A DNA stretch of 13,086 nucleotides from a virus. Its lineage: Duplodnaviria > Heunggongvirae > Uroviricota > Caudoviricetes. The stretch covers positions 1-13,086 of the IMG/VR virus record IMGVR_UViG_2713896897_000017. One strand, written 5' to 3'. This document shows, one piece after another, positions 3,869-13,086 of this stretch. The stretch's first letter is position 1, and the number at the start of each line of letters is the position of its first letter. Position numbers and translations under genes: made by a program. Under the pieces are notes generated by a model. It worked only from the letters and a program-made list of their open reading frames with translations. It was not told the DNA's origin and searched no databases.

Positions 3869-5221
<1,353 letters not shown>

Positions 5222-5947: not shown

Positions 5948-6131
5948 TAAGAATCAATGGTGTGGACAATTCAAACGATGCAATGGATGCAAGCTGCAAT
6001 CGGAATGCATGGTTAAGCCTGAAGAAATGTTTCCTGTAATAGAAGATGGGAAAAATGTCGATAAATGGGCAATACGAACTACGGCAATGATTGCCAGAGA
6101 ACTTGACAAACAGAAAAACAAGGCTGCCTGA
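5931..6131 (+). CDS. ral: Ral (restriction alleviation protein)
   Basis: 66-aa ORF MTTTIDKNQWCGQFKRCNGCKLQSECMVKPEEMFPV..., nearly identical to lambda Ral as I recall it. Confidence 0.85.
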   Translation: MTTTIDKNQWCGQFKRCNGCKLQSECMVKPEEMFPVIEDGKNVDKWAIRTTAMIARELDKQKNKAA

Positions 6132-6265
6132 TGGTGGCCTTTATTTTTGGCATAAACAACAGAATAAACACTGCACTGTGTATTCATTCCAACGAGTGAA
6201 TACACGGAGCAATGTCGCTCGTAACTAAACAGGAGCCGACTTGTTCTTATTATTGGAAATCATCT

Positions 6266-6296
6266 TTGCCCTCCAATGTGAGGGCGATTTTTTATC
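6266..6296 (+). terminator. Rho-independent terminator between ral and the next gene
   Basis: Stem TTGCCCTC (6266-6273) / GAGGGCGA (6280-6287, one G-U pair) with loop CAATGT, followed by TTTTTTAT. Confidence 0.6.
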
Positions 6297-7133: not shown

Positions 7134-7422
7134 TAAGCGTGAAATATCGCAAATAATCGCAAGTTTTACTGATGAAGATTACGAACGAATTAACAGTGAA
7201 GTTGATCGCCTCTGCAAACGTTGCGACCCAATAAGCGAAATGCTTCGCTCATATAAACCAGATGAACACACTAAGGATGCTATCGACTGGCTGGAAGATG
7301 ATGACTGTAACTATCAGGAAAAAGCCGCTGAATGGTTCTGGGATGCAATAACCGAAAGAGTTAAGGCTGAATATGCCTTCGCAATATTCAAACGCAGACA
7401 CATTTTTGGAGAAGCTGCATGA
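7111..7422 (+). CDS. Hypothetical 103-aa protein immediately upstream of recT
   Basis: ORF with AGGAG RBS 4 nt upstream; its stop overlaps the recT start (ATGA); no family recognised, and it is not lambda Gam by recalled sequence. Confidence 0.55.
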   Translation: MMILTLNDKREISQIIASFTDEDYERINSEVDRLCKRCDPISEMLRSYKPDEHTKDAIDWLEDDDCNYQEKAAEWFWDAITERVKAEYAFAIFKRRHIFGEAA

Positions 7423-8201
7423 GCAATATCGTTGAATTCGTTAAACAGCAAGAGCAGTTATTCTGCGGAGCATTGACTGAACAGACGGTGATATGGGCTA
7501 AGGAAAGCCAGTTTGCAATTCAGTATTTCCAGAAAAACGATTACCTGGCTAAAACAGCACTGGCAAATCCAACCAGCGCACAGAACGCCATCATCAATGT
7601 TGCGGCGATCGGCATTACCTTAAACCCGGCTAGCAAACTGGCTTATCTGGTTCCGCGCGACGGCATGGTGTGCCTTGATATCAGTTACATGGGATTACTT
7701 CATCTTGCGCAATCGACAGGCTCAATTAAGTGGGGACAATGCAAACTGGTGTACTCAAACGACACCTATGAATCAAACGGCCTTGATTCAGCACCAACCC
7801 ACAAATACAACGCATTTGGTGAGCGAGGCTCTATTGTTGGTGGTTATTGCACGGTTAAAACAGCAGATGGTGACTACCTCACTGAAGAAATGAGTCTGGC
7901 AGAAATTAAAGCTGTGGAAGCAACGAGCAAGGCAAAGAATGGACCGTGGAAGACATTCTGGGAAGAGATGGCGCGTAAAACCATAGTTAAACGCGCCAGC
8001 AAATACTGGCCTAAAGCCCAGCGACTGGATAATGCCATTCACCTGCTTAACGAAGATGAAGGTATGCATCAGGAACCAGTTATGCCGCACAAATCAGAGG
8101 AAGATATCCGCGAAGATGAACGGAAACGCCAGCAGGAAATATGGATAAAGCACAACTTCTTTGTGATGAAATGGCCTAGGCTGAAACCATGGATGATTTG
8201 A
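7419..8201 (+). CDS. recT: RecT-family single-strand annealing recombinase
   Basis: 260-aa ORF with the conserved RecT/Red-beta C-terminal signature GPWKTFWEEMARKTIVKRASKYWP (compare Rac RecT GPWVTHWEEMAKKTAIRRLFKYLP). Confidence 0.8.
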   Translation: MSNIVEFVKQQEQLFCGALTEQTVIWAKESQFAIQYFQKNDYLAKTALANPTSAQNAIINVAAIGITLNPASKLAYLVPRDGMVCLDISYMGLLHLAQSTGSIKWGQCKLVYSNDTYESNGLDSAPTHKYNAFGERGSIVGGYCTVKTADGDYLTEEMSLAEIKAVEATSKAKNGPWKTFWEEMARKTIVKRASKYWPKAQRLDNAIHLLNEDEGMHQEPVMPHKSEEDIREDERKRQQEIWIKHNFFVMKWPRLKPWMI

Positions 8202-8303
8202 AGCGATATTTTGCAGAAGCATATCGCCTGACATCTGGAATGAAATTGCGGCAGAACGTACAAGCCATTTACATAGAATGCAAAGCGAAACTGGAGGTTG
8301 CCA

Positions 8304-8786
8304 GTGAGCAAACTGTATGAAATTGCCAATGAATACGCAAAGCTGATGGATTTAGATTTAGAGCCAGAGATGATTGCTGACACAATAGAAGGCATGGAAG
8401 GAGAATTTACCGATAAAATAGAGCAACTTCTTGCCATTATTAAAAATGAGTCTGGTTATGCTGAACGCCTCAAGGAAGAGGCAAAGTCACTGAATGAAAG
8501 AGCAGCAGTAATTCAAAATAAGATTGATAGCATTATGACGTATATAGCGTCATCGCTTGAAATGGTTGGAAAGAAAAAGATTCGAGCAGGTATTCACCAG
8601 GTAACAATCCGCAAACCGTCAGAAACTGTAGAAATCATCGACTCAAGCGCCCTTCCTCCTGAATACGTTGAGTTCGAAACGACAATTAAAGCCGACAAAC
8701 TGGCAATCAAACACCAACTAAAAGCAGGAATAAATATCCCCGGTGCTCAACTCAAAGTTGGGAAACCTTCACTTCTTATCAAATAA
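8304..8786 (+). CDS. Sipho_Gp157-like protein (commonly found next to phage recombinases)
   Basis: 160 aa from GTG at 8304 with GGAGG 6 nt upstream (track ORF starts at TTG 8298); coiled-coil-rich N-terminus and overall resemblance to the Gp157 family. Confidence 0.55.
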   Translation: MSKLYEIANEYAKLMDLDLEPEMIADTIEGMEGEFTDKIEQLLAIIKNESGYAERLKEEAKSLNERAAVIQNKIDSIMTYIASSLEMVGKKKIRAGIHQVTIRKPSETVEIIDSSALPPEYVEFETTIKADKLAIKHQLKAGINIPGAQLKVGKPSLLIK

Positions 8787-8797
8787 CGGTATCGCCT

Positions 8798-9112
8798 ATG
8801 AAAAAGACTCCTTGGGAGAAATGGGAAGTCGATTTCTTACGCGAAGTAGCGGCGACAATGCCAGTTGAAGTTATCGCTGAAAAACTGGAAAGGACTGAAA
8901 AAGCAGTAATGGCGAAAGCAACAAGGATTGGCGCTGACATTGTTAGCCGACTTCGTGGAAGACGCTGGACAAGAGCCGAAGTATCACTTTTCGGTAAGTT
9001 CTCCGCAGAAGAAATAGCAATTGCAACCTGCCGCTCAATTTATTCAGTAAGAGCTATGCGATACAAGCTAAAAAAACTCGATGAAGAAAGAGCAGGCATA
9101 CGAATAAATTAA
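8798..9112 (+). CDS. Hypothetical 104-aa protein with an internal tandem repeat (possible DNA-binding)
   Basis: ORF; two roughly 40-aa units starting W..(W)EV.F and W.RAEV.LF, each followed by E(E)IA...R......A...K, suggest a duplicated helical module. Confidence 0.5.
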
Positions 9113-9128
9113 CAAAGAGGAATTTACC

Positions 9129-9296
9129 ATGAGAGGACTTGCATACAACCCCGGCATTCTTCCTGCAGAAATGATTATTCGCCAACGCGTAAAGCCAATG
9201 CCATCGAGAGAGGAATTGCTTAAGAGAAAGAGTTTCGGTTCTGTTAATGACAACAAATATCTGAATGCGATGTTGCGCAAAGGAGGCAACCAATGA
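9129..9296 (+). CDS. Hypothetical 55-aa protein
   Basis: Manual translation [55 protein letters not shown]; AAAGAGG RBS about 8 nt upstream; its stop overlaps the next gene start (ATGA). Confidence 0.4.
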
Positions 9297-9646
9297 GCAA
9301 GATTGACTATCAGGCACTGCGTGAAAAGGCAGAGAAAGCAACGTGTGGTGTGTGGTCGCTCGAATATGGAGAGAGCCGATTTGATTGTGATGATGCGCTA
9401 ATTCATCGTGACGTTGTTGGATATCTTCCCATTTGCAGAATTGAAGGAGCGCATCCTGAAAGCGGTTTCGATGAAGATTTCCAAATGGAACAGCAGGCCA
9501 ATGCTGAATTCATCGCCGCAGCCAATCCGGCTACTGTGCTGGCACTACTGGATGAAAACGAAAGACTGTGTCGCGAGCTGATAGCTCGTAATGGTGAGAT
9601 TGAAGGGCTTCGGAAGTGGGCAGAAGAACGGGAGATGCAACCATGA
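9293..9646 (+). CDS. Ead/Ea22-like protein (paralogue 1)
   Basis: 117-aa ORF with the conserved block [24 protein letters not shown] characteristic of the Ead/Ea22 family. Confidence 0.65.
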
Positions 9647-10089
9647 TGACTTTTACCAGCGAACAATTAGCTACCTTACGTAAGATAGCGCAACAGGCAA
9701 CACAGGGCGAATGGCGTGCATTCATCTCGCCGGACACTGGTACATATGCGGTGCATACGCCGGGGGATGAACGTTGCGGAGACATTATCAAATGGCCTGG
9801 CTTTGACGACCAGAAAAATGCAGAGAACAACGCAGAATTTATCGCAGCTTTCAACCCTAAATTAGTGCAGACACTGCTGGATGAACGGGAAAGAAACCAG
9901 CAATACATCAAATCACGCGACCAGGAGAACGAGGATATTGCGCTAACGGTAGGGAAGCTGCGCGTTGAGCTTGAGGAGGCAAAATCAAAACTCAACGAGC
10001 AGCGTGAGTATTACGAAGGTGTTATCTCGGATGGGAGTAAGCGTATTGCTGAACTGGAGAAGTTACGAAACATGCTGTCCAGAATGTAA
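9643..10089 (+). CDS. Ead/Ea22-like protein (paralogue 2)
   Basis: 148 aa from the ATG at 9643 (overlaps the previous stop); shares NNAEFIAAFNPKLVQTLLDERER with the upstream paralogue; C-terminal coiled-coil. Confidence 0.65.
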   Translation: MMTFTSEQLATLRKIAQQATQGEWRAFISPDTGTYAVHTPGDERCGDIIKWPGFDDQKNAENNAEFIAAFNPKLVQTLLDERERNQQYIKSRDQENEDIALTVGKLRVELEEAKSKLNEQREYYEGVISDGSKRIAELEKLRNMLSRM

Positions 10090-10130
10090 CCATGAATTTA
10101 AAACAGATTTCGTGTATTGAGGTATAACAA

Positions 10131-11051
10131 ATGACCACTATTACCAGAGAACAAGCTCTGAAAATTATTGAGGCAGCCGATGAGGTTATTAGTGCGTTTG
10201 CCGGAACTAACGAGGATGTTCACCCTGGTAGCGAAAACATGCTACGCCTGTGGGATGACCTGAATGACCGTTACGCGCCGCCGGAAGTTGTGCGTGAGCT
10301 GGCACGGATTGCACTGGCATCGCTGGAAGCAGAGCCGGTGGTTTACATGTGGGATAGCGAAAGAAAAGATATTGATGCCCCCGGGTATTATCGGACTGAG
10401 CATTTAGTGTTCGCTGAGAGTAGTGTTAAGCAATGGGGAGGGCGAGTTGTTCCACTTTACACCGCACCGCCAGCGACGGTAATACAGGCTGATGTCGCGC
10501 AAGCAATTGAAAATCTCAAGCAGAAGTTAGTGGAATGCAATTGCTATAGCTACTGCGCAGATGCAGTTAAAGGCATAGAGGGGGCTTGCCGTGCTGTTAT
10601 CTATAGCCAAGTCGATAATCCACCAGCATCTGGTAGCCAGGCTGCTGAATCCAATCGCAGTAATGAGTGGACTGGCAATCCTGATATTGATAACGCCATC
10701 ATCATGCTCGACCGCATAGATACGGCGGAAAGTTACGATGATGACCGTATTGAGGCTGTTAAGGTTGTTTTGCGTAGACTGGCTGGCAACTCTCCGGTAA
10801 CTCCGGATGGTTGGATAAGCTGTAGTGAGCGAATGCCAGAAATGGGAGAGCGACAATGCTATGTGTTAGCAGCAGACTTTATAAACAACTACCCACCAAA
10901 CATCCCCAACACTCAGGTCGGCGTATATGGCGACTGGTTTAATGATGGCAATCCCACTTGGGATGACGGTGATGGCGAAGACCTGTATCTCAAAGAGGTA
11001 ACCCACTGGATGCCCCTACCAGAGCCACCGCAGGAGGTTAACCGTGGCTAA
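10131..11051 (+). CDS. DUF551-domain protein
   Basis: 306-aa ORF; the C-terminal region W.SCSERMPE...VL...........VGVY.DW......W.DG......EVTHWMPLPEPP matches the DUF551 pattern common in enterobacterial prophages; the N-terminal two-thirds are unassigned. Confidence 0.6.
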   Translation: MTTITREQALKIIEAADEVISAFAGTNEDVHPGSENMLRLWDDLNDRYAPPEVVRELARIALASLEAEPVVYMWDSERKDIDAPGYYRTEHLVFAESSVKQWGGRVVPLYTAPPATVIQADVAQAIENLKQKLVECNCYSYCADAVKGIEGACRAVIYSQVDNPPASGSQAAESNRSNEWTGNPDIDNAIIMLDRIDTAESYDDDRIEAVKVVLRRLAGNSPVTPDGWISCSERMPEMGERQCYVLAADFINNYPPNIPNTQVGVYGDWFNDGNPTWDDGDGEDLYLKEVTHWMPLPEPPQEVNRG

Positions 11052-11328
11052 CCTGCAACTTGCCGTTAACGGTGAATACTTCGATGCCATGATTCGCGGA
11101 GAGAAAACAGAAGAATATCGCCTGTGTAATGACTACTGGAATAAGCGAATTATGTTCCGCGAGTATGACCGCCTGATTATCACAAAGGGATATCCGAAGC
11201 GCGATGATTCCAGCCGCAGAATAGACGTCCCGTATGACGGATATGAAATCAAGACAATCACACATCCGCACTTCGATGATAAACCGGTAAAGGTATACGC
11301 GATAAAGGTAAATATCGGCACTGAATAA
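11044..11328 (+). CDS. ASCH-like (PUA-fold) small protein
   Basis: 94-aa ORF from GTG; the N-terminus YFDAMIRGEKTEEYRL fits the ASCH GxKxxExR signature (compare E. coli YqfB FQDDILAGRKTITIR). Confidence 0.45.
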   Translation: MANLQLAVNGEYFDAMIRGEKTEEYRLCNDYWNKRIMFREYDRLIITKGYPKRDDSSRRIDVPYDGYEIKTITHPHFDDKPVKVYAIKVNIGTE

Positions 11329-11353
11329 CAATCCGCACAACACAAGGTCAAGA

Positions 11354-11632
11354 ATGTTCAGAGTGATTTACCCTAACACCTGGTACGTCGACCACCACGG
11401 CACTCCCTGCAAAATCCTGCGTTCCACTCACAACAAAGTTCACTACATCCGAAAAGGCAGAACATGTATCGCCAGCATGTTCCGCTTTAATCATGACTTT
11501 GAACCTGTGAATAAAGCTGACGCAGATCGGATAGCTGAAGAGATCGAAACAGCAGAACACATTAAGAAGTTACGTTCCATGCGCTCAAAAAACAGAGGTA
11601 ACCATGGAATCACACAGCCTCACACTCGATGA
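11354..11632 (+). CDS. Hypothetical 92-aa protein
   Basis: ORF with a basic C-terminus; no family recognised. Confidence 0.4.
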   Translation: MFRVIYPNTWYVDHHGTPCKILRSTHNKVHYIRKGRTCIASMFRFNHDFEPVNKADADRIAEEIETAEHIKKLRSMRSKNRGNHGITQPHTR

Positions 11633-11701
11633 GGACTGTTCATTTCTCAATGGTATCCAAACCTACTGCAATAATACCAATTCAATCAATGGAGATTCCA
11701 A

Positions 11702-12049
11702 GTGGAAGAAGAAATCTTCACTCGTGAAGAGGCAGCATCGTATCTGAAGGTAGACAAAGGCACTATCACGCAGTGGATACGAAGTGGACGACTTCAGGCC
11801 GCAAAGATAAATCCAGATAAACCTAAAAGCCCATATCGCATTTGCAAGTCAGACTGCATTGCGGCGCTTAAGTCTGTGAGACACAATAGCGCGGTGAATG
11901 CGGTTGATGTGCAGGAGGTTAAAGCATGTCAATCAAACTACGCGGTGGCACATGGCACTGCGATTTCGTCGCGCCAGATGTTTCAAGAGTTAGACGCTCT
12001 CTTGAAACATCGGACAAAATGCAAGCGCAAGAACTTCACGATCGTCTGA
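11702..12049 (+). CDS. xis: Excisionase (P22 Xis-like, HTH_17/AlpA-type)
   Basis: 115-aa ORF from GTG with a GGAG RBS; FTREEAASYLKVDKGTITQWIRSGRL is a typical excisionase HTH; overlaps the int start; length close to P22 Xis. Confidence 0.65.
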   Translation: MEEEIFTREEAASYLKVDKGTITQWIRSGRLQAAKINPDKPKSPYRICKSDCIAALKSVRHNSAVNAVDVQEVKACQSNYAVAHGTAISSRQMFQELDALLKHRTKCKRKNFTIV

Positions 12050-13086
12050 AAGCAGAGGCGTGGAGAGTAAAAAATCTCGGGGAATCTCCGAAAAAGCTAT
12101 TCAAGGAAGCCTGCATACGGTGGCTGCGTGAGAAATCGGATAAGAAGTCCATTGATGATGACAAGAGCATTATATCGTTCTGGATGTTGCACTTCAGAGA
12201 AACCATTCTCTCTGACATAACAACAGAAAAAATAATGGAGGCGGTAGACGGGATGGAAAACCGCCGCCATCGCCTGAACTGGGAGATGAGCCGGGACAGG
12301 TGTTTGCGGCTTGGCAAGCCAGTGCCGGAGTATAAACCAAAGCTGGCAAGCAAAGGAACGAAGACGCGGCATCTGGCAATACTTCGCGCTATTCTCAATA
12401 TGGCTGTTGAATGGGGATGGCTTGACAGGGCGCCAAAAATATCAACACCACGCGTTAAGAATGGACGAATCAGATGGCTTACAGAGGAGGAATCGAAGCG
12501 CCTGTTTGCAGAAATTGCTCCTCATTTCTTCCCTGTGGTCATGTTTGCAATCACGACAGGCCTTCGCCGTTCCAACGTTACAGACCTTGAGTGGTCACAG
12601 ATCGATCTGGATAAGAAAATGGCATGGATGCACCCTGATGAAACAAAAGCTGGCAATGCGATCGGAGTTCCTCTTAACGAAACCGCATGCCAGATATTAA
12701 GAAAACAGCAGGGGCTCCATAAGAGATGGGTATTTGTCCACACCAAACCTGCCTACCGAAGCAACGGAACAAAAACAGCAGCGGTAAGGAAGATGAGAAC
12801 CGACAGCAACAAGGCATGGAAGGGAGCGTTAAAGCGGGCAGGCATTAGCAACTTCCGCTTCCATGACCTGAGGCATACCTGGGCAAGCTGGCTGGTTCAG
12901 TCCGGTGTCTCTCTTCTTGCACTTAAAGAGATGGGAGGATGGGAAACTCTCGAAATGGTTCAAAGATATGCCCATCTTTCAGCCGGGCATCTCACCGAGC
13001 ACGCGAGCAAAATCGATGCGATTATAAGTCGCAATGGCACAAATACGGCACAAGAGGAGAACGTGGTTTACTTAAATGCGAGGTAA
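11926..13086 (+). CDS. int: Tyrosine integrase, P22 Int type
   Basis: 386-aa ORF; the N-terminus ...SLETSDKMQAQELHDRLKAEAWRV and the C-terminal catalytic region FRFHDLRHTWASWLVQSGVSLLALKEMGGWETLEMVQRYAHL align by eye with P22 Int as I recall it; the stop codon is the last triplet of the window. Confidence 0.9.
   Translation: MSIKLRGGTWHCDFVAPDVSRVRRSLETSDKMQAQELHDRLKAEAWRVKNLGESPKKLFKEACIRWLREKSDKKSIDDDKSIISFWMLHFRETILSDITTEKIMEAVDGMENRRHRLNWEMSRDRCLRLGKPVPEYKPKLASKGTKTRHLAILRAILNMAVEWGWLDRAPKISTPRVKNGRIRWLTEEESKRLFAEIAPHFFPVVMFAITTGLRRSNVTDLEWSQIDLDKKMAWMHPDETKAGNAIGVPLNETACQILRKQQGLHKRWVFVHTKPAYRSNGTKTAAVRKMRTDSNKAWKGALKRAGISNFRFHDLRHTWASWLVQSGVSLLALKEMGGWETLEMVQRYAHLSAGHLTEHASKIDAIISRNGTNTAQEENVVYLNAR

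Follow-up and report, generated by a model that had tools for sequence, protein, structure and literature searches.

The window, the whole 13,086-nt stretch of DNA that we analysed, carries on its plus strand the gene order cI, N, ral, cIII, kil, RecT, Gp157, seven genes termed here g1 to g7, xis and int, followed on the source contig by tRNA-Thr. The xis and int genes are 97% and 99% identical, respectively, to those of HK446, and the nearest phages (HK446, HK140, Gally, and Stx phages) are all lambdoid. A tRNA-Thr(CGT) attachment site lies 3' of int on the source contig, and on L002 the tRNA-Thr lies 15 nt 3' of int. The window belongs to a prophage integrated at thrW of a non-coli Escherichia. 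The features of the interval and its flanks are as follows.

7419-8201, plus strand, RecT-family single-strand annealing protein (Pfam RecT, E=3.4e-33; phrog_148)
8298-8786, plus strand, Siphovirus Gp157 / Mu Gam-like protein (Pfam Sipho_Gp157, E=5.6e-37; phrog_253, 'Mu Gam-like end protection')
8798-9112, plus strand, g1, ORF of 104 aa
9129-9296, plus strand, g2, ORF of 55 aa
9293-9646, plus strand, g3, ORF of 117 aa
9643-10089, plus strand, g4, 148 aa when read from ATG 9643 (the program-listed ORF begins at GTG 9616)
10131-11051, plus strand, g5, ORF of 306 aa
11044-11328, plus strand, g6, 94 aa, with a GTG start within the last codons of g5
11354-11632, plus strand, g7, ORF of 92 aa
11702-12049, plus strand, xis, excisionase (phrog_2907, E=3.9e-51; Pfam HTH_17), the downstream limit of the interval
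11926-13086, plus strand, int, tyrosine integrase (Pfam Phage_integrase, on the source contig)

All seven plus-strand genes named by an earlier, sequence-only reading of this DNA are present in the ORF list, and the public gene calls of the source contig are identical to them. They fill about 97% of the interval on one strand only. The ATGA stop/start overlaps claimed at 9293-9296 and 9643-9646, and the 8-nt overlap of g5 and g6 at 11044-11051, are seen in the sequence; the non-overlapping gaps around the block genes measure 11, 16, 41, 25, and 69 nt. Shine-Dalgarno-like motifs lie 5' of g2, g3, g4, g5, g6, and g7, and homologue comparison gives pN/pS below 1 for every one of the seven genes, these values being sums over non-independent sequences. 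A 47-aa ORF at 11604-11747 was set aside as a gene because it lacks a family match and overlaps both g7 and xis.

A consensus-match scan of the plus strand inside the block found no promoter-like sites and a single weak terminator-like hairpin (11618-11634); further terminator-like hairpins stand upstream of the block at 6120-6141 and 6266-6287. An Rfam search of the window returned no RNA family, and the direct and inverted repeats in the block are only short, probably chance matches, except for a conserved Ead motif. [quoted passage not shown] The earlier proposal of one operon fits the packing, the lack of internal promoter-like sites, and the exo-xis literature (PMC8614690), and the block is most likely carried on one polycistronic early message from pL with N antitermination, on which its closely spaced or overlapping genes would be translationally coupled.

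The gene order also agrees with the description of a tightly packed, same-strand accessory interval between a recombination module and xis-int. We consider it likely that this interval is the accessory region termed exo-xis in lambda, ea in P22, and hka in HK620, made of independently assorting parts and carried by a lambdoid prophage at thrW. The block lies where it is expected, 3' of the recombination genes and 5' of xis-int on the early-left (pL) strand, and two of its genes, g3 and g4, belong to the ea22/ead family. [quoted passage not shown] It differs from lambda in that the orf60a/63/61 cassette and ea8.5/orf55 are not in the present block, in having RecT-Gp157 where lambda has Exo-Bet-Gam, and in that the C-terminal domain of Ea22 is missing from g4. 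A tblastn search of the window with lambda orf60a, orf61, and orf63 found no match; because this cassette is absent, what lambda and phi24B show as phenotypes may not apply here.

The resemblance to the P22 ea and HK620 hka regions (abc1, abc2, orf56/hkaI, hkaH, ead/hkaG, eaA) lies in a shared order of families: an Abc1-type HTH gene beside recombination/anti-RecBCD genes, then DUF2737, Ead, EaA/DUF551, ASCH-like, and xis. P22 and HK620 differ in carrying Erf-Abc2 rather than RecT-Gp157; moreover, a DUF4222 gene is extra here, and what is a single P22-type Ead, with N-terminal domain, coiled coil, and DUF551, is here spread over three genes. In type it is a P22/HK620 region. All seven are genuine genes but ordinary ones, a fresh instance of an already described nonessential and highly mosaic region; the member families in Pfam and PHROG are already known from thousands of enterobacterial prophages, and by itself the region adds little.

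Comparison of the interval across related prophages, which the sequence-only reading had suggested, reveals a variable gene content of 3 to 12 genes: HK446 has 3, HK140 has 9, and an E. coli prophage has 12, while the ST104 interval holds 5 genes after abc2. All seven genes co-occur on the source contig only (160-171 related viral loci), and coverage of the block stays below 80% in every record, yet 4258 of 5426 E. coli genomes have pieces of it. The close packing on one strand, with three gene overlaps and no internal promoter-like sites, would also be expected of one co-adapted system whose products act together. Against that reading, the source contig is the only one of 171 loci with the full set, g1 is joined by g6 in 21 of 80 loci, and g6 by g7 in 17 of 80. 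For g4 and g5, no relative in the related loci reaches 70% identity over 80% coverage, and recombination at the g6 cassette takes place no more than about 40 nt from either end. The co-occurrence data already run counter to a co-adapted system, which we regard as highly improbable. The block comprises three independently assorting parts rather than one seven-gene system, contrary to the earlier treatment of it as a unit. Given this independent assortment, screens by deletion or expression should not handle the block as a whole. Each biochemical role offered below for these parts is one that we infer.

The first part is g1, usually followed by g2. The g1 gene is tied to RecT-Gp157: it accompanies both genes in 94 of 94 loci, and in 80 of 80 g1-seeded loci Gp157 precedes the g1 match at a distance of 15 nt. 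Its coding sequence shows 11 nonsynonymous against 209 synonymous differences (pN/pS 0.016) and is under very strong purifying selection. The internal repeat claimed for g1 is borne out by profile comparison, which aligns repeat 1 with repeat 2 (E=0.002) and repeat 2 with the third repeat of longer relatives (E=7e-10), whereas BLASTP, blind to the repeat, gives no alignment of one half with the other. An AF2 model places two three-helix bundles in the protein, and PDB searches with g1 yield nothing significant apart from a weak NarL HTH match to the g1 profile. The model argues for g1 as a tandem GcrA/Myb-like HTH protein. The g2 product matches Pfam DUF2737 over its whole length (104.9 bits against a cutoff of 25, E=1.9e-30) and is of the HK97 gp38 / HK620 HkaI / P22 orf56 type, with a pN/pS of 0.26. 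It follows g1 in 79 of 80 loci; in Erf-type phages, a DUF2737 gene follows abc2.

Both g1 and P22 Abc1 fall in phrog_323 (2.8e-20 and 9.2e-25), and annotators of phage Gally call a protein identical to that of g1 Abc1-like. The homology of g1 to Abc1 is indirect: hhalign gives E=1.9e-4 and 47% probability, and BLASTP finds no similarity between the two. A deeper Abc1 profile gained nothing, since the family is limited to near-identical Salmonella sequences and the profile stays shallow. The two proteins are alike in size (about 100 aa), in two HTH repeats, in a position directly 3' of a strand-annealing module, and in PHROG; they differ in neighbour, the partner gene in P22 being Abc2 and that beside g1 Gp157/Gam-like. 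P22 Abc1 aids recombination by a mechanism that is unknown in the literature (PMC12315714), and its phenotypes have been reported (PMC12315714, bioRxiv 10.1101/2023.04.06.535777). On the strength of this linkage, g1 appears to belong functionally with the recombination genes, the RecT-Gp157 module having g1 as its conserved distal end, and its product may be of the P22 Abc1 kind. This product most probably attaches to DNA, or to a partner that is itself bound to DNA, and may thereby assist phage recombination or RecBCD evasion.

The second part, g3-g4-g5, is a hypervariable centre, probably produced by domain shuffling among Ead/Ea22 and EaA(DUF551) genes. Of the two Ead/Ea22 paralogues proposed earlier, both pass the Pfam Ead_Ea22 cutoff of 27 (g3 at 74 bits, g4 at 129 bits), but neither has the lambda Ea22 architecture of N-terminal segment, central coiled coil, and dimeric C-terminal domain. 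The g3 match is limited to positions 1-91 of the 139-position profile, and its homologous N-termini open ORFs of 143-328 aa in 43 of 45 loci, so g3 is probably a truncated Ead/Ea22 N-terminal fragment. The g4 product covers the full profile (E=3.1e-37); its residues 66-139 are 84% identical to residues 28-101 of lambda Ea22, and it stops there. This alignment points to an N-terminal domain and a lambda-Ea22-type coiled coil without the C-terminal domain, and g4 may act as a coiled-coil oligomeriser that lacks this domain. The DUF551 label given earlier to g5 holds for residues 227-301 (73.3 bits against a Pfam cutoff of 22, E=3e-20); the domain also occurs in EaA, in YfdS, and at the C-terminus of Ea22_V2. 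Its relatives carry the EaA annotation, and g5 belongs to phrog_60 and phrog_924; it is probably a P22 EaA-like protein with DUF551 at its C-terminus. The top full-length g5 relative is 64% identical (170 loci). A third Ead paralogue at the g5 N-terminus was rejected (E=2.7). The Ead of ST104 maps to g3, g4, and that end of g5 which carries DUF551, and PDB sequence searches with g4 and g5 returned nothing significant.

Such truncated genes could instead be recombinational debris, that is, non-functional remnants of longer ead/ea22 genes in the case of g3 and perhaps g4. With 117 aa, g3 is the shortest among 45 homologous ORFs (117-328 aa overall), the sole other 117-aa copy is flagged in RefSeq as a pseudogene fragment, and the nearest g4 relative has 207 aa against 148 aa here. 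The pN/pS values of 0.51 for g3 and 0.66 for g4 also speak for decay, yet both are still below 1 and come from few or saturated comparisons. Both frames are intact, with ATG starts, Shine-Dalgarno motifs, and exact ATGA coupling, and g4 keeps the full Pfam profile. Ea22 forms tetramers, favours lysogeny, and varies in its C-terminal domain (PMC10834534, PMC7093339); the candidates for tetramerisation are its N-terminal region and/or coiled coil, and the C-terminal domain has no activity by itself (PMC10834534), which speaks against debris in genes that retain the former. We view debris as possible but doubtful. As functional genes, g3-g5 would bias the lysis-lysogeny decision, by analogy with Ea22, and as natural truncations g3 and g4 are useful for locating the pro-lysogenic activity within the parts of Ea22.

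The third part, g6 and g7, is proximal to xis. The g6 gene is a sharply bounded cassette with edges at about -40 and +285, identity to the window dropping to random within about 40 nt on both sides, and it has a pN/pS of 0.13. Its product belongs to phrog_625 (933W L0064 type, E=7.8e-50). The ASCH label that it had received falls below threshold in Pfam (PF04266, PUA-like clan; 13.7 bits against 21.2, E=0.11), while a GxKxxExR motif is conserved: its residues G19, K21, E24, and R26 are kept across 48 diverse relatives and are invariant or nearly so in two alignments of the family. GxKxxExR after the first helix is the ASCH signature. Within the family, ASCH is matched by 10 of 20 close relatives at E<=10 and by 4 of 48 distant relatives at E<=0.01, and DUF3850 by 2 of the 48. 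ASCH proteins such as E. coli YqfB, an N4-acetylcytidine amidohydrolase (PDB 1TE7/9KYF), resemble g6 in small size, in an N-terminal beta-alpha-beta unit with GxKxxExR, in the weak Pfam ASCH and DUF3850 matches, and in RefSeq name. They differ in that g6 is sub-threshold in Pfam and the comparison of its family with YqfB by hhalign, using a query confirmed to be PDB 1TE7, is not significant. Remote-homology and structure prediction, proposed earlier for each ORF, yielded the two-HTH model of g1; for g6, an AF2 model from a shallow alignment is unusable (pLDDT 45), and PDB searches with g6 and its profiles returned nothing significant. The sub-threshold match and conserved motif weakly suggest an ASCH identity, and this xis-proximal cassette may encode a putative RNA- or nucleotide-binding protein.

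The g7 product matches Pfam DUF4222 with 67.2 bits (E=9.1e-19), compared with 82 bits for RgdR and a cutoff of 27. It is 92 aa long here and 79 aa in 19 other loci, and a PDB sequence search with it returned nothing significant. RgdR, a DUF4222 protein of EHEC, regulates the LEE and motility, and its RGD motif is important for activity (PMC3378721). The two are prophage-encoded, basic, and similar in size, and align with 24% identity over 75 aa (g7 against RgdR/ECs1581, E=4e-6). The RGD motif, at residues 20-22 of RgdR, is absent from g7, and the alignment begins after it; in addition, RgdR is encoded beside a primase in a P4-like element and g7 beside xis. The alignment suggests that g7 is a distant DUF4222 relative of RgdR and, by analogy, this second xis-proximal cassette may encode an RgdR-like, low-specificity DNA-binding co-regulator.

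The earlier statement that the role of all seven genes is unknown goes too far: phenotypes have been published for the family members Ea22, RgdR, Abc1, and YfdS, the last a DUF551 protein (PMC4776307). The suggestion that this is an anti-defence interval is partly sustained, as the same interval of relatives holds anti-restriction genes (Ral and Lar-family) and the anti-RecBCD gene Abc2. On this reading, the genes would individually be anti-defence or host-takeover cargo directed at host immunity or competing phages, with the ASCH-like protein acting on modified nucleic acids. P22 abc1, from the PHROG of g1, made several phages fitter in wild E. coli hosts and also set off P4-dependent cell death (bioRxiv 10.1101/2023.04.06.535777; PMC12373910), and genes in an arms race typically show turnover as high as that of g3-g5. 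However, none of the seven proteins matches a characterised anti-defence protein, NCBIfam and PADLOC return zero matches for all of them, and g1 and g6 are strongly conserved rather than fast-evolving. Published Ea22 and exo-xis phenotypes, moreover, concern lysis-lysogeny timing rather than immunity (PMC3824215, PMC7093339). We judge individual anti-defence cargo to be unlikely as an account of the seven genes.

Within a mosaic accessory region of independently assorting parts, only one lead merits testing, the linkage of g1 to RecT-Gp157. The g1 gene is best analysed together with RecT-Gp157, and it opens a second, far more widespread way into the unsolved question of what Abc1-type proteins do. 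We tentatively raise the possibility, at low confidence, that g1 has been overlooked as an obligatory third member of the enterobacterial lambdoid RecT-Gp157 module and is the functional equivalent of Abc1, and that it directs or licenses recombination or counters RecBCD-linked immunity. If so, the near-invariance of g1 would reflect a conserved host or DNA target.

The seven plus-strand genes between the Gp157 gene and xis (g1–g7, the block) form three independently assorting parts of an ordinary region whose class is already described: exo-xis in lambda and Stx phages, ea in P22, and hka in HK620. All seven genes claimed by the sequence-only reading are present where it placed them, with identical calls on the public source contig. 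Its three overlapping junctions are seen in the sequence as two ATGA overlaps (9293-9296 and 9643-9646) and an 8-nt overlap of g5 and g6 (11044-11051); other gaps around and inside the block are 11, 16, 41, 25, and 69 nt. Its family labels stand for both Ead/Ea22 genes and the DUF551 gene, which pass curated Pfam cutoffs (Ead_Ea22 twice, DUF551) as do DUF2737 and DUF4222, whereas ASCH in g6 is sub-threshold (E=0.11, 13.7 bits against a cutoff of 21.2).

The block and the upstream recombination module, with pN/pS from summed Nei-Gojobori counts against the window; the sequences are non-independent, so these values are indications only
7419-8201, plus strand: RecT gene; pN/pS 0.16
8298-8786, plus strand: Gp157 gene; pN/pS 0.10
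8798-9112, plus strand: g1, 104 aa; pN/pS 0.016 (209 synonymous, 11 nonsynonymous differences)
9129-9296, plus strand: g2, 55 aa; pN/pS 0.26
9293-9646, plus strand: g3, 117 aa; pN/pS 0.51 (few comparisons)
9643-10089, plus strand: g4, 148 aa counted from ATG; pN/pS 0.66 (synonymous sites saturated)
10131-11051, plus strand: g5, 306 aa; pN/pS 0.21
11044-11328, plus strand: g6, 94 aa, GTG start; pN/pS 0.13
11354-11632, plus strand: g7, 92 aa; pN/pS 0.37

These ratios argue for translation of the small ORFs g1, g2, g6, and g7. Most block starts are preceded by a GGAGG-type ribosome-binding motif. A consensus scan found no plus-strand promoter-like site inside the block, and the sole terminator-like candidate on that strand is a weak, non-T-rich hairpin (11618-11634); an Rfam search of the window returned no RNA family. 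In the best-supported account, the block would be expressed from pL, in an N-dependent manner, as one polycistronic message whose genes are translationally coupled. Between ral and DUF2528-cIII-kil, close behind ral, the plus strand has two good terminator-like hairpins, each with a T tract (6120-6141 and 6266-6287). As candidate tL-type terminators, they would stop transcription short of the block unless N antitermination carries it through. A 47-aa plus-strand ORF called on the public contig (11604-11747) overlaps the g7 end and xis start and lacks a PHROG match; it is unlikely to be a gene. In the HK446 annotation, xis begins at a GTG and encodes 115 aa, and this ORF overlaps the int start by 124 nt in a different frame (11926-12049).

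The setting is a lambdoid early region, with ninB, a DnaB-type helicase, an O-like initiator, and cII- and cro-like genes on the minus strand and LexA-type cI, N, ral, DUF2528, cIII, kil, RecT, Gp157, the block, xis, and int in order on the plus strand. Immediately behind the cI-like repressor (Sf6 gene 38 type), with which it overlaps, comes a 134-aa gene (4817-5221, plus strand) whose product has a hydrophobic N-terminus resembling a signal peptide or lipobox and could be a repressor-cotranscribed exclusion protein. The exact source contig (NCBI GCA_001514595.1 BBVG01000031.1) carries tRNA-Thr(CGT) 15 nt past int, then proA-proB-phoE. To each of the 5404 matching E. coli genomes, this flank (positions 9100-12900 of L002, the source contig) has an identity of only 90.5%. 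The host is therefore a non-coli Escherichia, our guess being E. albertii, which accounts for the lack of any E. coli genome carrying most of the block. By megablast, pieces of the block occur in 614 phage records and 4258 of 5426 complete E. coli genomes, and no record in either set covers 80% of it. HK446 is the closest phage overall (97% identity over 51% of the window).

According to the literature, regions of the exo-xis type are transcribed from pL and dispensable for growth, and they keep their position while their content varies (PMC8614690, PMC3824215, PMC10834534). Gene number in this slot is 3 in HK446, 9 in HK140, 12 in an E. coli NRZ14408 prophage, and, in P22-like ST104, 5 after abc2. 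Lambda has its own orf60a, orf63, orf61, ea8.5, and orf55 cassette, whereas the window contains no copy of these genes, making its region P22/HK620 type.

Comparison across related prophages, as the sequence-only reading had proposed, covered 80 IMG/VR loci seeded on g6 and 80 seeded on g1, with all proteins scored by tblastn, and revealed mosaic gene content. The co-occurrence data contradict a single co-adapted seven-gene system, as among related IMG/VR loci all seven genes are jointly present on the source contig only. g2 lies downstream of g1 in 79 of 80 loci (43 directly, 35 with one gene inserted), g6 occurs in 21 of the 80 g1-seeded loci, and g7 accompanies g6 in 17 of 80; g4 and g5 have no relative at 70% identity over 80% coverage in the fetched loci. 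A DUF5405 gene often sits between g1 (or abc2) and DUF2737 (related loci L001 8355-8645, L004 2332-2613, and L003 2832-3113). RefSeq and PHROGs (phrog_154) label it 'replication initiation protein', for which no support was seen in this analysis.

The central genes agree with the published picture of Ea22, in which a conserved N-terminus and coiled coil carry swappable C-terminal domains, DUF551 among them (PMC10834534). g3 and g4 share only 47% identity over 49 residues, around a conserved NAEFIAA.NP...LLDE.ER motif. Residues 66-139 of g4 are 84% identical to the coiled coil of lambda Ea22 (residues 28-101), and g4 ends right past it, thus lacking a C-terminal domain. Among the fetched loci, the closest full-length relative of g5, an EaA-type protein, is 64% identical. 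ST104 has one Ead gene (263 aa), whereas its counterparts in the window are split over three: residues 45-155 correspond to g3 (84% identity), 107-175 to g4 (71%), and 187-263 to the DUF551 end of g5 (40%). Recombination may have left g3, and perhaps g4, as a remnant: g3 covers only the first 91 of 139 positions of Ead_Ea22, in 43 of 45 loci g3-homologous N-termini open longer ORFs (143-328 aa), and the one further copy of 117 aa, which RefSeq flags as a pseudogene fragment, lies in E. coli 755, where a g4-like gene again follows. Ea22 is pro-lysogenic (PMC7093339), and phenotypes in oxidative stress and replication initiation are known for the DUF551 protein YfdS (PMC4776307). If functional, g3-g5 would influence the lysis-lysogeny decision.

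g6 matches phrog_625 (7.8e-50) and belongs to a family of >1200 representatives at 50% identity, with relatives named "ASCH domain-containing" in RefSeq. ASCH is matched by 10 of 20 close relatives (E<=10) and 4 of 48 distant ones (E<=0.01), and the related DUF3850 by 2 of those 48; G19-K21-E24-R26 is invariant or almost so. Searches against PDB and YqfB gave no match and AF2 no usable model; an ASCH fold is no more than plausible. Across 77 distinct loci the g6 ORF has 0.9-0.99 identity to the window, and beyond about -40 and +285 identity is random in most. Every variant keeps GGAGG (5-6 nt before the start), (A/G)TG, and GCTAA, so any upstream gene stops inside g6 codons 2-3. That gene varies (DUF551, DUF550, DUF4752, or hypothetical) and has a common TAA (window 11004-11051, 77 loci); with the kept GGAGG, this places the recombination boundary inside its last ~10 codons. 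g6 is a mosaic cassette with predicted built-in translational coupling. g7 (79 aa in 19 other loci) is 24% identical over 75 residues (E=4e-6) to the DUF4222 protein RgdR/ECs1581, an LEE1 activator, motility repressor, and non-specific DNA binder (PMC3378721), but lacks its RGD motif. Both g6 and g7 could be small nucleic-acid-binding modulators.

We conclude that g1 is part of the recombination module rather than variable accessory cargo. In every locus with g1 (80/80 and 14/14), RecT and Gp157 are present too and g1 immediately follows Gp157. The g1 protein is 99-100% identical in 80 viral loci whose RecT spans ~83% to 100% identity; its synonymous divergence (0.059) is below that of Gp157 (0.134) and g2 (0.199). 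In the family alignment, g1 has two HTH repeats and longer relatives a third (hhalign E=7e-10 for repeat 2 against the third, E=0.002 for repeat 1 against 2). Its AF2 model (pLDDT 86) forms two three-helix bundles and matches 16 phage proteins in BFVD at E<=1e-3, many ~100 aa; a few lower matches (E 1e-3 to 8e-3) are named Myb-like, GcrA, or transcriptional regulator. g1 is the positional counterpart of Abc1, and profile comparisons suggest that it is probably a homologue: phrog_323 is matched by g1 (2.8e-20) and the P22-type Abc1 of ST104 (9.2e-25), and hhalign of the g1 family against Abc1 gives E=1.9e-4 (probability 47%), with no BLASTP match between the two proteins. In phage Gally, the identical protein is annotated as "Anti-RecBCD protein 1, similar to P22 Abc1".

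Abc1 helps P22 recombination, is not essential, and has an unknown mechanism (PMC12315714). The Abc1 encoded by phage S149 (7155-7439), identical to the sequence that we compared with g1, led in wild E. coli to P4-dependent cell death and to phenotypes resembling counter-defence (bioRxiv 10.1101/2023.04.06.535777; PMC12373910). These phenotypes leave some probability to an anti-defence role for the block genes, and the claim of an anti-defence slot holds in that relatives carry Ral, Lar, and Abc2 there. However, PADLOC and NCBIfam gave no matches for the seven genes and the present analysis yielded no supporting evidence for any of them, and we consider such a role unlikely. As part of the recombination module, g1 would act together with RecT-Gp157, and the invariant RecT-Gp157-g1 linkage with its Abc1 connection is the one lead worth pursuing.
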